A stretch of DNA of 64,000 nucleotides, from positions 288,001 to 352,000 of the forward strand of contig CAVXJH010000006.1 of the NCBI GenBank assembly GCA_963762115.1, written 5' to 3'. A program made the position numbers and the translations under genes. Source of the DNA: Candidatus Babeliales bacterium. GTDB taxonomy: Bacteria > Babelota > Babeliae > Babelales > JANWKD01. How positions within the stretch are numbered: the first letter of the stretch is position 1; each line of letters opens with the position of its first letter. Positions 60,543 to 64,000 of this stretch are shown here, piece after piece. The notes below the pieces were generated by a model, which searched no databases, was not told where the DNA came from, and was given only the letters and a program-made list of their open reading frames with translations.

Positions 60543-61049
60543 ATGAGAAAAATGATTGTTGTGGGTATGGCATTGTTTTTTAGCATAACAAATGCAATGA
60601 ATTTACCATTGTTAGATGGTAATTATATCCCTGTTTATGTAGTATCACGTGCAAAATTCCAAGAGCAGAATGTTATTAATGCGACATCATCTAATAAACC
60701 AGTTATTGATCCCGCTTTATTAACAACATATCAATTAATAGTGCAAGATGAACCAATACATGATTTAGAAAATGAAAAAAATAAGTATGGTAGCGCAGAA
60801 AAGAAAACAACAATTGCTTATTTTTGTCTAGTGCCTACGTGCCAAAAGGCTCTATTAAAAAGATATCGGTATGTACATGAGGCATGGCATCTTAATACAG
60901 AACCGCATAGATGCGATTCATGTCAATTGGCATTCGAAACTAAATATTGTTTAATAACTCATTGTAAATCCAAAGTGCATAGGACTGGATTTTTGGGCAG
61001 CAGATTATCAGCGACATCTGATAATAATGGTATTAATTCTTTACAGTAA
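60543..61049 (+). CDS. Secreted C2H2 zinc-finger protein
   Basis: Signal ...TNA-MNLPLLDGN; CLVPTC...HEAWH; CDSC...HCKSKVH. Confidence 0.82.
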   Translation: MRKMIVVGMALFFSITNAMNLPLLDGNYIPVYVVSRAKFQEQNVINATSSNKPVIDPALLTTYQLIVQDEPIHDLENEKNKYGSAEKKTTIAYFCLVPTCQKALLKRYRYVHEAWHLNTEPHRCDSCQLAFETKYCLITHCKSKVHRTGFLGSRLSATSDNNGINSLQ

Positions 61050-61267
61050 TAAATAATGTTGAGGCATAAAAAATTGCCTATCCTACGAATAAAAAACACT
61101 AAAAAACAGGTTAAAATAGTTAAAAAAGCCTGCTTATTGACTAATTAATAATTTCTGTTAGAATATAATATATAATCAAAACAATCATTTTAATGCAATT
61201 TGCTGGAAATATGGTTAAATTTTGATGTTTATAGTAATTAAAAAGAATTTAGGGAAGGACAAATCGT

Positions 61268-62167
61268 ATGAAAAAAATAGTTATTATATTAGCATTTATT
61301 TTTGTTGGCATGGCTAATGCTATGCAACAATGGTCATTATTAGATGGTAATGAAGTTCCTCAATATGTACATACTGATCCTGCAAAAATTGCTTATCTAA
61401 AAGATATACAAGGTTTATATCATCGTATTCAACGAGAAGATGTTCAATCGTGTACCCAAGAAGAAATTCAATCAGAAGGCCGCACTAAAGGACCGGGTAT
61501 TGAACAACTATTTTCTTTTCTCGTGCCAGTGCAAAATCATGATGTTCCTCATATAAAACCATTTGAGGGTGATTTTTATTTGACTGAACATGAAAATGAT
61601 GAAGAAGAAGTTTTTGCGCCATTAATTCTTGATTGTTCGCAAGAAGCTTCAGTAAAAAATGCTGAAAAACAACAGGATCGAGCGACTGTTGATCGCCAAG
61701 AAAAAGAATTGGAGAGTATGCAGTCAATTTTCTTGGGGCAAATAAAAGAGAAAAGTAATCCCAGAAAAAAAAGAACACTTAAAGAAGCCATTGCATCTGA
61801 TGAAAAAAATAGAAACCTCTCTAAGGAATCTGTTGTATTAAATGCAAGTAAAAGATCAATGTCATCAAAAAATATGGAGATATGCGGTATTAATGGTTGT
61901 CAGTATCGTTCAGCTTTTAATAGTGATATGAAAGTCCATAAAAGAAAACCACATAAATTGATAGAATGCCCTTATCCTGATTGTAGTGCTCCTTATCAGT
62001 CTCAAGATGGTTTGTCGCAACATATTGGTGATGCTCATCCGGAAAAATATTGTAAGGTGTGTGATTATGCACCAAAGAAACTGGGTAATTTATTAAGGCA
62101 TTTTCGAGGTGTTGAACATCTCAGGAAGTTGGCATCTATTAATTCTAGGGAAGGACAAATCGTATGA
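61268..62167 (+). CDS. Secreted triple C2H2 zinc-finger protein with NLS-like motif (tandem copy 1)
   Basis: Signal ...ANA-MQQ; PRKKR; CGINGC..HKRKPH, CPYPDC..HIGDAH, CKVC..HFRGVEH. Confidence 0.85.
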   Translation: MKKIVIILAFIFVGMANAMQQWSLLDGNEVPQYVHTDPAKIAYLKDIQGLYHRIQREDVQSCTQEEIQSEGRTKGPGIEQLFSFLVPVQNHDVPHIKPFEGDFYLTEHENDEEEVFAPLILDCSQEASVKNAEKQQDRATVDRQEKELESMQSIFLGQIKEKSNPRKKRTLKEAIASDEKNRNLSKESVVLNASKRSMSSKNMEICGINGCQYRSAFNSDMKVHKRKPHKLIECPYPDCSAPYQSQDGLSQHIGDAHPEKYCKVCDYAPKKLGNLLRHFRGVEHLRKLASINSREGQIV

Positions 62168-63156
62168 AGAAAATAGTTATTATATTAGCGTTTATTTTTG
62201 TTGGCATGGCTAATGCTATGCATATACAACGGTCATTATTAGATGGTAATGATATGCCTCAATATGTATATACTGATCCTGCAAAAATTGCTTATCTAAA
62301 AGATATACAAGGTTTATATCATCGTATTCAACAAGAAGATGTTCAATCGTGTATTCAGGAAGAAATTCAATCAGAAGGCCGCACTAAAGGACCGGGTATT
62401 GAACAACTATTTTATTTCCTCGAGCCTGTTTTTTCTGACTGTAGTCGAACAGGAGATGTTCAATCACGTACTCAAGAAGAACGTACGAGCGGACCAAGTA
62501 TTGAACAAATATTTTATTTTCTCAAGCCAGTACAGAATCATAATGTTTCTCATATAGAATCATTTGAGAGTGATTCTTATTTGACTGAACATGAAAATGA
62601 TGAAAAGAAGGAAGTTTCTGCAGCGTCATTAATTTTTGATTTTTTGCAAAAATCTTCAGTAAAAAAAGCAGAAGAACGACAAAATAGAGCGGCTGTTGAT
62701 CGCCAAGAAAAACAATTGAGAGAAGAGAAAAGTAAATCAAGAAAAAGAACATTAGAAGAAGCCGCTTCATCTGATGGAAAAAATAGAGGCCTCTCTAAAG
62801 AACCTGTTGTTTCAAATACAAGCAAAAAGGTTGCAAGAAAAAGTTCAACGGTATCAGAAAAAATGAAGATATGCGGTATTAATGATTGCCGGTATCATAC
62901 AGCTGTGAGTGGGCATATGAAGCATCATAAAGAAACACTGCATGAGCAAGAGCAGTGTCCTTATCCTGGTTGTAGTACTCTCTGTCAATCCAAAAGTGAT
63001 TTTTCGCAACATATTGATGATGCCCATCCAGAAATATGTTGTAAAATTTGTGGCTATAAGCCAAAGAGACGGTGTGAGTTATTAAGGCATTTTCGAGGTG
63101 TTGAACATCTTAGGAAGTTGGCATCTATTAATTTGGGGAAAGGACGAATCGTATGA
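62164..63156 (+). CDS. Secreted triple C2H2 zinc-finger protein (tandem copy 2)
   Basis: Same signal peptide; KSRKR; three C2H2 fingers; ATGA overlap. Confidence 0.85.
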   Translation: MKKIVIILAFIFVGMANAMHIQRSLLDGNDMPQYVYTDPAKIAYLKDIQGLYHRIQQEDVQSCIQEEIQSEGRTKGPGIEQLFYFLEPVFSDCSRTGDVQSRTQEERTSGPSIEQIFYFLKPVQNHNVSHIESFESDSYLTEHENDEKKEVSAASLIFDFLQKSSVKKAEERQNRAAVDRQEKQLREEKSKSRKRTLEEAASSDGKNRGLSKEPVVSNTSKKVARKSSTVSEKMKICGINDCRYHTAVSGHMKHHKETLHEQEQCPYPGCSTLCQSKSDFSQHIDDAHPEICCKICGYKPKRRCELLRHFRGVEHLRKLASINLGKGRIV

Positions 63157-64000
63157 AAAAAATAGTTATTATATTAGCATTTATTTTTGTCGGCATGGCT
63201 AATGCTATGCAATTGTCATTATTAGATGGTAAGAAAGTCCATCAATATGTACATACTGATCCTGCAGAAATTGCTTATCTAAAAGGTATGCAAGATTTAT
63301 ATAAACGTATTCAACAGCAAAAATCACGTACTCAAGGAGCAGTTCAATCAGAAGGTCCTACTCGCGGACCAGGTATTGAACAAATATTTTCTTTTCTTAA
63401 TCCTGTTTTTCCTGACTGTAGTCAAACAGAGGATGTTCAATTACGTACTCAAGAAGAACGTACGAGCGGACCAAGTATTGAACAAATCAAGCTAGCGCAG
63501 AATCATAATGTAGAACCATTTGAGAGAAATTTTTATTTGACTGAATATGAAAATGATGAAAAGAAGGAAGTTTCTGCATCGTCATTAATTTTTGATTTTT
63601 TGCAAAAATCTTCAGTAGAAAAAGAAGAAGAACGACAAAATAGAGCGGCTGTTGATCGCCAAGAAAAACAATTGGGAGAAGAGAAAAGTAAATCAAGAAA
63701 AAGAACATTTGAAGAAGCCGCTTCATCTGATGAAAAAAATAGAGGCTCTTCTAAAGAACCTGTTGTACCAAATACAAGCAAAAAAGCTGCAAGTAAAAGT
63801 TCAACGTCATCAGAAAATATGAAGATATGCGGTATTAATGGTTGTGGCTTTAGTACAGTGCTGAGTGATACCATGAGGCGTCATAAAGAAACACCGCATG
63901 AGCAAGAGCAATGTCCTTATCCTGGTTGTGCTTTTTACCATCAATCTAAAGGTGAGTTGTTTCGGCATATTAAGAGATCTCATCTAGAAAAATCTTGTAT
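63153..64000 (+). CDS. Secreted C2H2 zinc-finger protein (tandem copy 3), 3'-truncated by the window
   Basis: ATG at 63153, MKKIVIILAFIFVGMANAMQLSLLDG; open to the window end with CGINGC and CPYPGC; absent from the ORF track because it has no stop. Confidence 0.85.
   Translation, partial: MKKIVIILAFIFVGMANAMQLSLLDGKKVHQYVHTDPAEIAYLKGMQDLYKRIQQQKSRTQGAVQSEGPTRGPGIEQIFSFLNPVFPDCSQTEDVQLRTQEERTSGPSIEQIKLAQNHNVEPFERNFYLTEYENDEKKEVSASSLIFDFLQKSSVEKEEERQNRAAVDRQEKQLGEEKSKSRKRTFEEAASSDEKNRGSSKEPVVPNTSKKAASKSSTSSENMKICGINGCGFSTVLSDTMRRHKETPHEQEQCPYPGCAFYHQSKGELFRHIKRSHLEKSC

Follow-up and report, generated by a model that had tools for sequence, protein, structure and literature searches.

We put at about even odds (probability roughly 0.5) that a tandem array of bacterial C2H2 zinc-finger genes encodes proteins that are exported, enter the host nucleus by means of a K/R cluster and bind nucleic acid through their fingers, in a repertoire that is diversifying by duplication and recombination. 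Sec would export the proteins through a cleavable signal peptide (…GMANA/M, the slash marking the predicted cleavage site), after which they might leave the cell by a type II secretion apparatus or in vesicles. The K/R cluster would then mediate entry into the host nucleus, with the fingers binding nucleic acid and the acidic region recruiting host factors. The repertoire grows by tandem duplication of a leader-plus-ORF unit, and recombination or gene conversion shuffles segments, including single fingers, among the copies. Recognition-helix turnover is elevated in fingers 1 and 3 while the zinc ligands, signal peptide and K-R cluster stay fixed.

The array comprises 15 co-directional (+) genes spanning 13 kb (positions 348543-361607 of contig C6). 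Its start is formed by the genes at 60543-64000 of the window, i.e., the whole 64,000-nucleotide stretch of DNA analyzed, and its end lies at window-equivalent 73607, 9.6 kb beyond the window end. An initial sequence-only reading of this DNA had described a four-gene array, which is real but understated the full extent of 15 genes. The four genes that it placed in the window (60543-61049, with two fingers, 61268-62167, 62164-63156 and 63153-64000) were all confirmed as ORFs, and the signal peptide that it ascribed to each was recovered (a K-rich n-region, hydrophobic core and small-x-small site, then an LLDG-type motif), as were the basic clusters (RKKRT, RKRT) and every helix string that it quoted. 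The features are as follows.

59396..60277, - strand: ankyrin-repeat neighbor gene, 293 aa (Ank_2 E = 2e-38), with a like N-terminal export signature (…SYS/MEEE); context for the class of exported eukaryote-like proteins
60543..61049, + strand: Z01, divergent first array gene, 168 aa; signal peptide ending NA/MN; LPLLDG motif
60825-60890 and 60912-60980, + strand: the two C2H2-type fingers of Z01
61251..61270, + strand: leader of Z02, with its ATG and a Shine-Dalgarno-like AGGGAAGGA; the whole 20-nt stretch occurs again at 62147
61268..62167, + strand: Z02, core copy, 299 aa; signal peptide and acidic region
61763-61777, + strand: basic cluster RKKRT of Z02
61883-61954, 61967-62038 and 62051-62119, + strand: the three fingers of Z02
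62147..62166, + strand: second leader copy, coding the C-terminal end of Z02, whose stop overlaps the Z03 start in ATGA
62164..63156, + strand: Z03, core copy, 330 aa; GPGIEQ-hydrophobic motif duplicated internally
62164..62217, + strand: signal peptide of Z03 (residues 1-18); n-region KK, hydrophobic core, A-N-A, then the invariant Met19
62740..62751, + strand: basic cluster RKRT of Z03, with K194 and R195 family-invariant; NLS-like or a dibasic processing site
62872..63108, + strand: the three C2H2 fingers of Z03, with 4-residue linkers between fingers
63153..64000, + strand: Z04, a core copy truncated by the window end; the full contig ORF has 322 aa and stops at window-equivalent 64121
63828-63983, + strand: fingers 1 and 2 of Z04; finger 3 runs from 63996

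All 15 array genes have intact ORFs. Twelve are core copies, with Z03 serving as the reference for alignment and structure modeling; the edge subfamily Z01, Z14 and Z15 is the older one (BLASTP of Z01 against Z14, E = 5e-10). Seven of the 14 junctions have a 4-nt ATGA overlap, one has a 13-nt overlap and three have a 5-nt gap; terminator-like sites on the + strand within the array number two, both weak. The 20-mer AGGGAAGGACAAATCGTATG has exact matches at 61251 and 62147 and nowhere else, and near-copies precede each later gene. These observations bear out the earlier suggestion that the leader is reused as the 3' end of the upstream gene, with ATGA coupling, and the array originated by tandem duplication with the leader reused in this way. 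Genome-wide, the C2H2 spacing pattern exceeds chance because it occurs in 22 of 1288 non-overlapping ORFs (≥100 aa), versus a mean of 0.85 and a maximum of 3 in 20 shuffles.

Expansion by tandem duplication, as first proposed, captures only half of the dynamics because the copies are recombinant mosaics. The closest DNA partner changes from segment to segment in every copy, and all six AU tests across topologies rejected (p < 0.001). Gene order appears to differ in a related metagenome strain, in which, by an alignment judged by eye, proteins P0003 and P0008 resemble Z09 and Z13, respectively; both are encoded on one 2,080-bp contig. The N-terminal halves, which had been called near-identical, merit that description for Z02 and Z03 (90% amino acid identity over residues 1-88) but not for Z02 and Z04 (76%) or Z03 and Z04 (71%).

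A Sec-type leader was recognized by sequence rules (K/R n-region, hydrophobic core, small-x-small site) in 15/15 array genes. Across the 16-sequence alignment, which combines the 12 core copies with four metagenome relatives, Met19 and the hydrophobic core of the signal peptide are invariant or nearly so in every sequence, and the signal-peptide omega is 0.30 versus ~0.8-0.9 across the remaining protein. Endings of the form [AGS]/M[EDQ] characterize 114/402 signal-peptide-like ORFs genome-wide, compared with 58/886 other ORFs; carriers include the array genes and at least 10 of the 37 ankyrin genes checked. This leader signature, a small residue followed by M-E or M-Q, is genome-wide here and may mark exported proteins throughout the phylum. 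A Sec signal by itself delivers proteins only to the periplasm. Zinc fingers with at least six Cys would need to pass through that oxidizing compartment, which counts against a nuclear-factor reading.

Each core copy has an acidic stretch of ~100-170 residues that contains repeated hydrophobic-acidic motifs and for which disorder is predicted; in the AF2 model of Z03, pLDDT is < 50 over residues 1-230. The acidic region that had been noted is present, though its acidity is modest (net charge -2 to -23). The K-R cluster is invariant in 16/16 sequences and in Z03 presumably fits the monopartite type of classical NLS. The proteome is Lys-rich and has many K/R clusters, which weakens an NLS-like reading of the one in the array. 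An alternative is that the proteins stay periplasmic or surface-exposed, with the array acting as a source of recombination-driven surface variation and the fingers as no more than a small zinc-stabilized scaffold. The mosaic copies and the apparent order difference in the metagenome strain (P0003/P0008, one contig) accord with this, and the Sec signal alone is demonstrable, but it is an improbable account: residues 1-230 are predicted to be disordered, the proteins lack a membrane anchor, lipobox Cys and beta-barrel, the export signature is shared with ankyrin-repeat proteins, for which no role outside a eukaryotic cell is known, and a scaffold role leaves the conserved K-R cluster and three DNA-factor-like fingers unexplained.

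All 12 zinc ligands (in Z03, C237/C242/H255/H260, C265/C270/H283/H288 and C293/C296/H309/H315) are invariant in 16/16 family sequences. The canonical C-x2-4-C-x12-H-x3-5-H spacing is found in 33/37 core fingers; the other four, in Z05 and Z07, have x10, x13, x16 or x20 between the second Cys and first His. In the AF2 model of Z03, pLDDT is 81-93 for residues 231-320; fingers 1 and 2 show strand-strand-helix elements, finger 3 a helix. Searched against solved structures, the family profile matched ZFAT (E = 1.1e-5), Ikaros, CTCF, Helios and GLI, with 13 chains at E ≤ 0.001, and its finger part alone was matched by 1,489 multi-finger proteins. Pfam matches for single proteins were all sub-threshold (best for PF13909, 21.6 bits against a gathering cut-off of 27, and for PF00096, 21.1 against 25.2); one copy has a precomputed PF13909 hit. 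The top Foldseek matches were all C2H2 arrays, with a best E of 6.5e-3 that is below significance, and likewise the VIA finger matches, at Z ≤ 3, were below significance (CTCF ZnF6-8: Z = 3.0, rmsd 3.1 Å, 47 residues).

Bacteria have zinc-finger regulators of the Ros/MucR type (PF05443), cytoplasmic proteins with a single, larger, distantly C2H2-like zinc-coordinating DNA-binding domain. The array fingers differ from these single-domain cytoplasmic regulators and appear to be of the eukaryotic type; a Pfam scan of the four in-window proteins gave no ROS_MUCR match at E ≤ 0.1. The existence of such regulators, together with the fact that signal-peptide cleavage is a sequence prediction, does give some footing to the idea that the array proteins are the bacterium's own regulators, with the N-terminal hydrophobic segment a membrane anchor or unused and the fingers on bacterial DNA. 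We consider this very unlikely given the missing ROS_MUCR match and because a cleaved leader or a signal-anchor would place the fingers outside the cytoplasm; moreover, the small-x-small site followed by M-E or M-Q is common to 114 signal-peptide-like ORFs, and 15 regulator paralogues, absent from a same-genus genome, would be odd in a reduced 1.5-Mb genome.

The TGEKP-type linker of DNA-wrapping arrays (Zif268/KZFP type) has seven residues from the last His to the next Cys. Linkers of that type were looked for and not found: the inter-finger linkers are H-x4-C in 12/12 core copies (columns 261-264 and 289-292). Such short linkers fit protein or RNA binding no less than DNA binding. Fingers of the edge genes are jaz/U1-like in their C-x2-C-x12-H-x5-H spacing, with a weak PF12171 match (E = 0.047).

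Zinc-ligand codons have pN = 0 against pS = 0.345, so the architecture is under selection. Mean entropy at non-ligand finger positions (1.25) is above that of the N-terminal (0.74) and basic (0.76) regions. The proposal that variation is concentrated in the recognition helix held for entropy, with means of 1.68 at helix positions -1/+2/+3/+6 versus 1.16 at other non-ligand finger positions (permutation p = 0.017), but was borderline for pN (0.372 at contact positions versus 0.269 at others; permutation p = 0.051), and four of the eight fastest sites lie off the canonical contact positions. These non-contact sites are the third residue past the first His in fingers 2 and 3, the finger 3 knuckle, and the finger 1 residue after the second Cys. 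Helix-position diversification proved strong in finger 1, moderate in finger 3 and absent in finger 2, the ratios of contact-position pN to regional pS being 2.26, 1.25 and 0.69, respectively. Finger 2 contacts are conserved (S at -1, Q at +6). In finger 1, helix variability is highest at +2, +3 and +6, and position -1 is hydrophobic in most copies, which is atypical for a contact residue. Omega is ~0.8-0.9 along the whole protein apart from the signal peptide, so relaxed constraint may explain much of the variation.

C2H2 fingers also work as RNA- and protein-binding modules, and the array proteins could be exported effectors whose fingers bind host RNA or proteins in the cytoplasm, the K-R cluster being a dibasic processing site or charged linker. 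We judge this unlikely, though deserving of serious attention, since it draws on the 4-residue linkers, the mostly hydrophobic position -1 of finger 1, the non-contact sites (between the two His, and the knuckle) among the fastest, and the jaz/U1-like fingers of the edge genes. Set against it are the top sequence matches among solved structures, all of them DNA-binding arrays (ZFAT, Ikaros, CTCF, GLI), the invariance of the K-R cluster (16/16), and the ranking of +2, +3 and +6 as the most variable helix positions of finger 1.

Full-length family members comprise 12 proteins of this genome and four on two short metagenome contigs; of 1.84 billion cluster representatives searched, only three scored below 1e-30, and no full-length match was found in the 260 other genomes of the phylum. 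In a same-genus genome the syntenic site is occupied, in place of the array, by a single gene of 163 aa whose product combines a signal peptide with one finger. Among the loci examined in other genomes of the phylum, seven of ten C2H2 ORFs have a hydrophobic N-terminal leader (judged by eye), and acidic and K/R stretches are frequent in these leader-bearing ORFs. The layout of the array proteins recurs in P0021 and P0045, both from metagenomes. A family confined to essentially one genome, with omega ~0.85 over most of its length, might be decaying, functionless DNA from a eukaryote, or an assembly artefact of repeats. This is highly improbable, as 15/15 ORFs are intact at 34% GC, with 39 distinct in-frame gap intervals among the 12 intact core ORFs; ligand codons show no nonsynonymous change; leaders are bacterial and genes ATGA-coupled; and short contigs from two public DNA runs (one study, maybe the source sample) are identical to pieces of the array.

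The genome (1.53 Mb, 34% GC) encodes at least three TLC ATP/ADP translocases, parts of a type II secretion system (two secretins and GspC), PilM, and 37 ankyrin genes. It is the genome of a host-dependent bacterium of the energy-parasite type, and we infer the phylum Dependentiae. A Dependentiae isolate is reported to have signal peptides on 44% of its CDS, ankyrin proteins included, and Sec export plus vesicles were put forward as delivery routes (PMC6561590).

By analogy, the closest counterparts of the array are the fungal MoHTR effectors and the TAL effectors. MoHTR1-3 of Magnaporthe oryzae reportedly pair a C2H2 domain with a signal peptide and an NLS; they are secreted, enter host nuclei and bind host-gene promoters (PMC10189765, PMC12488382). 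The likeness to the array proteins is one of architecture (signal peptide, NLS-like cluster, C2H2). MoHTR1-3 differ in being fungal, exported by the ER pathway and small (MoHTR2 has 110 aa), with one finger domain and no tandem array, whereas the array has a bacterial producer, three fingers in each protein and 15 clustered paralogues. The TAL effectors found in Xanthomonas and Ralstonia carry an export signal and NLSs, read DNA with a modular domain whose specificity residues are hypervariable, and have an acidic domain for activation. Like the array proteins as interpreted here, they are bacterial transcription-factor mimics in paralogous families that evolve via recombination. They differ from the array in their 33-35-residue repeats and type III secretion; the Pfam scan detected no such repeat family and the family alignment no such repeats.

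The KRAB zinc-finger clusters of vertebrates are tandem C2H2 genes that grow by duplication and turn over at -1, +2, +3 and +6. They differ in being host-encoded repressors with many fingers and TGEKP-type linkers; proteins of the array have three fingers, linkers of 4 residues and a signal peptide, and their genes are arranged like a bacterial operon. Nucleomodulins (AnkA, Ehrlichia TRPs, LntA) are made by intracellular bacteria and enter the nucleus of the host cell; to our knowledge, none has arrays of classical C2H2 fingers, and a literature search found no published bacterial counterpart of C2H2-array effectors.

The reshuffling of segments and of putative DNA-reading positions suggests tools for reprogramming the host nucleus. 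We advance only tentatively, as a possibility, the broader proposal that a phylum of protist parasites, inferred to be Dependentiae, builds its own 'designer' transcription factors out of C2H2 fingers of the eukaryotic type, with Sec export, a phylum-wide small-residue/M-E or M-Q leader, K-R nuclear targeting, an acidic recruiter, and shuffled fingers and other segments giving new DNA specificities. In this genome the set would have expanded into the 15-gene operon-like array, which would parallel TAL effectors and KRAB-ZFP clusters at once, in a bacterium. Pathogens are known to make such mimics in two forms, the bacterial TAL effectors, built on repeats of their own type, and a small number of C2H2 proteins secreted by fungi; a bacterial family of Sec-tagged multi-finger C2H2 proteins would, if confirmed, be a third, independent solution, made from the commonest eukaryotic DNA-reading module, and would give a testable molecular basis for the poorly understood host manipulation by Dependentiae. 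Specificity is directly mappable in this family, because 12 natural three-finger variants share one scaffold.

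The sequence-only reading had described four C2H2 zinc-finger genes at the end of the window, and these plus-strand ORFs were recovered at 60543-61049, 61268-62167, 62164-63156 and 63153-64000, the last being truncated by the window end. All the strings it had quoted were likewise found in the sequence. On its contig the window covers C6 288001-352000. The description was correct for the genes themselves but not for their number, because reading the contig beyond the window showed the four to be only the start of a 15-gene array:

C6 348543-361607 (window-equivalent 60543-73607), all on the same strand: array of 15 genes, Z01-Z15, from contig reading
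Z02-Z13: core copies, 253-333 aa
Z01 (168 aa), Z14 (193 aa) and Z15 (298 aa): divergent edge genes

These three form a related set (Z01 versus Z14, E = 5e-10; Z14 versus Z15, 62% identity). Most of the 14 junctions are tight, comprising seven ATGA overlaps, one overlap of 13 nt and three gaps of 5 nt; wider gaps, of 23, 172 and 218 nt, make up the remainder. Each protein's tail is encoded by the leader of the next gene, and takes one of two forms, a read-through to the ATGA or a TAA stop within the leader. Reuse of a 20-nt leader as the end of the preceding copy, claimed earlier, held up: exact copies occur at 61251 and 62147 only, and the latter forms the 3' end of Z02. Z12 (C6:358228-359046, window-equivalent 70228-71046) has a fourth finger, C-x4-C-x12-H-x4-H, in place of the usual tail, and is followed by the 23-nt gap rather than an overlap. 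A promoter scan gave no signal (78 sites, 80.8 expected), and a look-up of sequencing runs listed no RNA run as holding the array. Short contigs of two DNA runs, both from one study and with small shares, matched pieces of the array without differences; these runs may derive from the source sample.

The core copies share a modular anatomy, numbered here as in Z03 (330 aa). Residues 1-18 read as a Sec-type leader with KK, a hydrophobic core and A-N-A; next come Met19, which is invariant, and an LLDG-type motif. A lipoprotein was rejected since the cleavage-type site has no following Cys. The next 90-170 residues form an acidic region whose net charge ranges from -2 to -23 among copies and in which a G-P-G-I-E-Q-hydrophobic motif occurs once or twice. 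AlphaFold gave no confident prediction for residues 1-230 (pLDDT below 50). A basic, NLS-like cluster (the K-R cluster) follows the acidic region; its K194 and R195 do not vary across 16 sequences, and its T196 hardly varies.

The C-terminal part of a core copy consists of three fingers with the spacings C-x4-C-x12-H-x4-H, C-x4-C-x12-H-x4-H and C-x2-C-x12-H-x5-H, modeled with pLDDT 81-93. All 12 zinc ligands are invariant in all 16 sequences, and the spacing is canonical in 33 of 37 core fingers, altered loops being found in Z05 and Z07. Against solved structures, the family profile matched ZFAT (1.1e-5), Ikaros, CTCF, Helios and GLI; Pfam scores of single proteins were below the curated cut-offs. 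Foldseek and the VIA second look had only C2H2 arrays among the top-listed structures, with no significant structural score. The protein atlas gave nothing more specific than generic C2H2 clusters, at 0.92, and its recognition value of 2035 fell short of the 2300 mark. Membership in the Ros/MucR and TAL families was rejected by the Pfam scan. The linkers between fingers are four residues long, shorter than the seven-residue TGEKP type.

Evolutionary counts were made on the 12 core copies, leaving out Z01, Z14 and Z15 as too divergent for full-length alignment and four metagenome proteins for which no DNA was at hand; selection was measured by Nei-Gojobori counts with permutations. Pairwise amino-acid identity was 54-77%. 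Purifying selection acts on the ligands, the leader and the K-R cluster: the 12 ligand codons had pN = 0 versus pS = 0.345, and omega was 0.30 for the signal peptide versus 0.67-1.1 for other regions. The 12 frames are intact across 39 distinct gap intervals, every one of them in frame. That the array is functionless DNA, accumulating changes freely as the near-neutral omega of several regions might allow, is hardly credible beside these intact frames and ligand codons.

The most variable alignable part was the non-ligand finger positions (mean entropy 1.25 versus 0.74 for the N-terminal and 0.76 for the basic region). The earlier claim that variation is concentrated at the recognition positions was only partly borne out. 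Mean entropy at the 12 helix positions -1, +2, +3 and +6 was 1.68 versus 1.16 at the 56 other non-ligand positions (p = 0.017, 100,000 draws), and the corresponding pN values were 0.372 and 0.269 (p = 0.051, 50,000 draws). Relative to regional pS, pN at the contact positions was 2.26 in finger 1 and 1.25 in finger 3, in agreement with the claim, but 0.69 in finger 2, which retains S at -1 and Q at +6. Eight sites exceeded a ratio of 2. Half of them are the finger 1 contact positions -1, +2, +3 and +6; the rest are the third residue past the first His of finger 2, its equivalent in finger 3, the finger 3 knuckle, and the first residue past the second Cys in finger 1.

The closest DNA partner of every copy shifts by segment (for Z03, successively Z02, Z04, Z06, Z09, Z13 and Z02 over six segments), and maximum-likelihood trees built separately for the N-terminal, basic and finger segments rejected one another in six of six AU tests (p < 0.001). 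The core copies are therefore mosaics produced by recombination or gene conversion, with single fingers among the exchanged units. Tandem duplication, mosaic recombination and lineage-specific expansion have all shaped the array, dynamics similar to those of vertebrate KRAB-ZFP clusters. A surface-variation system would also draw on mosaic copies, and would leave the conserved K-R cluster and the DNA-factor-like fingers unexplained; we consider it improbable.

Our best reading is that the array encodes zinc-finger proteins of eukaryotic type that are exported and directed at the host, with the nucleus as the most likely target. They would be released from the periplasm and imported into the host nucleus, where the fingers would bind nucleic acid and the acidic region might recruit or activate. 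A regulator acting within the bacterium, whose fingers would lie outside the cytoplasm if the leader is cleaved or serves as an anchor, seems very improbable. The main doubts about the nuclear reading are the short linkers, the hydrophobic residue at -1 of finger 1, the conserved finger 2 and the diffuse high omega. An exported protein with a non-nuclear target would fit the short linkers and the hydrophobic residue at -1, the K-R cluster then being a dibasic processing site or a charged linker; it is unlikely, although it deserves some weight.

By logic, the nuclear reading makes bacterial TAL effectors an analogue. By architecture and proposed action the closest analogues are the fungal proteins MoHTR1-3, which are reported to join a signal peptide and an NLS to a C2H2 domain and to bind promoters of the host (PMC10189765, PMC12488382). 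Literature searches, with subscription journals outside their scope, found no description of secreted C2H2 proteins in bacteria or Dependentiae, Babela massiliensis included, no bacterial C2H2 case among nucleomodulins, and nothing on topic for prokaryotic C2H2 proteins and gene transfer. Among the matches listed for secreted C2H2 effectors reaching the host nucleus, the C2H2 cases were fungal only.

In a collection of 5.8 billion proteins, the full-length family comprised 12 proteins of this genome and four metagenome proteins, which sit on two short contigs (2,080 and 2,792 bp). A profile search run exhaustively over 1.84 billion representatives gave three full-length matches below 1e-30 and 1,489 proteins matching the finger part only. 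Among 40 relatives only G004 matched, over the fingers only, and the same-genus genome G001 had no match; in the phylum as sampled (261 genomes including this one, one order), finger-only matches occurred in 14 of 260 others and full-length matches in none. A search of genome contigs found one weak finger-only match in an archaeal MAG (35% over 62 residues). None of 207 candidate stretches on metagenome contigs was confirmed, though the four JGI proteins stand in the protein collection, nor was any of 19 candidates on viral contigs. In the alignment, read by eye, the metagenome proteins P0003 and P0008 resemble Z09 and Z13, respectively. Since P0003 and P0008 share a contig and Z09 and Z13 are not adjacent here, array order seems to differ between strains.

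G001 is syntenic upstream of the site (M23 peptidase, two small genes, ankyrin gene) and downstream, where 405-aa and 322-aa ORFs align with the array's two downstream genes, taken by eye to be a metallophosphatase-like protein and a 2-hydroxyacid dehydrogenase. At the site itself, flanked by the ankyrin gene on one side and the 405-aa ORF on the other, there is one gene:

L031 (G001:C1:1218000-1237600), reverse-complement coordinates 4281-4772: gene of 163 aa, with a leader and a single finger at the C-terminus, at the array's syntenic site

Its finger is weakly similar to the final one of Z01, and this single gene may represent the ancestral state of the locus. With this gene at the syntenic site, the edge subfamily looks like the older resident, and the core family like an expansion between its members.

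Other C2H2 proteins are present in the genome. Because the PF00096 model is insensitive to the array fingers (a six-frame genome scan missed the array and gave one weak match only, at window 38561-38638), we used the C2H2 spacing pattern with a shuffle control, which found the pattern in 22 of 1,288 ORFs (0.85 expected). The 22 take in all 15 array genes as well as a second tandem pair, unrelated to the array and lying within the window:

38447-39190 and 39057-39659, minus strand: C2H2 tandem pair with leaders ending small/M-E (IFG/MEEN and SSC/METP)

One member ends in a K/R-rich tail, and the true start of the longer ORF is probably an internal Met, leaving an overlap of a few bases. Three further genes on other contigs have the C2H2 spacing; two have leaders, one with G-K-K-R-N-R directly after it.

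Among other genomes of the phylum, a hydrophobic leader was recognized by eye on the C2H2 ORF at seven of 10 loci (L033, L034, L035, L036, L039, L041 and L042), several with acidic runs and K/R clusters as well; the C2H2 ORFs of L018/L020, L038 and L040 and the multi-finger ORF of L037 have no leader. Two metagenome proteins found by the exhaustive profile search, P0021 (668 aa) and P0045 (332 aa), carry a leader and fingers of the C-x4-C type, along with acidic runs and K/R clusters. Together with the further genes of this genome, these cases point to an architecture of leader, acidic or low-complexity region, K/R cluster and C2H2 fingers that recurs in the phylum, the array being, from the sequences compared, its largest known expansion. 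A third metagenome protein from that search, P0039 (196 aa), has an N-terminal finger very like array finger 1. The ORFs of L037 (G137:C22; 179 aa, six fingers) and L040 (G166:C126; 765 aa, 13 fingers) have canonical H-T-G-E-K/R-P linkers and lie on short contigs of fragmented bins; they may be eukaryotic contamination or recent transfers.

The genome studied (1.53 Mb, seven contigs, ~34% GC, 95% complete) belongs to a phylum that, as sampled, comprises 261 species of 21 families, all within one order, whose genomes measure 0.5-1.9 Mb. It encodes at least three TLC ATP/ADP translocases, found in none of 14 control genomes, as well as two secretins, GspC and PilM; 95 ankyrin matches reduced to 37 open frames (one row per frame, a few possibly missed). 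Taken together, these genome features suggest that the phylum is Dependentiae. A crude leader screen of ATG-first ORFs of at least 100 aa (1,412, or 1,288 without overlaps) classed 402 as leader-like. The signature [AGS]/M[EDQ] ended the hydrophobic core in 114 of these 402 versus 58 of the 886 others, scored over the same residue window. It occurs in 13 of 15 array genes, the exceptions being Z03 (M-H) and Z01 (M-N), in the neighboring ankyrin gene (59396-60277, minus strand) and in at least 10 of the 37 ankyrin frames; a further six have the signature but fail the crude leader rule. The signature was seen too in C2H2 ORFs of other phylum genomes (L033-L036 and L041). It may represent a cleavage context, or a mark by which host-directed proteins are sorted. 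According to its description (PMC6561590), Chromulinavorax destructans lives in the host cytoplasm and has signal peptides on 44% of its CDS, most ankyrin proteins among them, and Sec export and outer-membrane vesicles are proposed as its effector route.

Tandem amplification of exported proteins seems to be general in this genome. Two other leader-bearing tandem families with near-identical N-termini lie on the same contig, one of three copies of 650-717 aa (C6:372010-378844, plus strand) and one of four copies of 577-588 aa (C6:491985-499000, minus strand). Three leader-bearing ankyrin-repeat genes (C6:198832-203145, minus strand) have K/R-rich stretches right after the M-E site and are located a few kb away from the type II secretion genes of the secretin/GspC/PilM cluster (C6:205034-213979).
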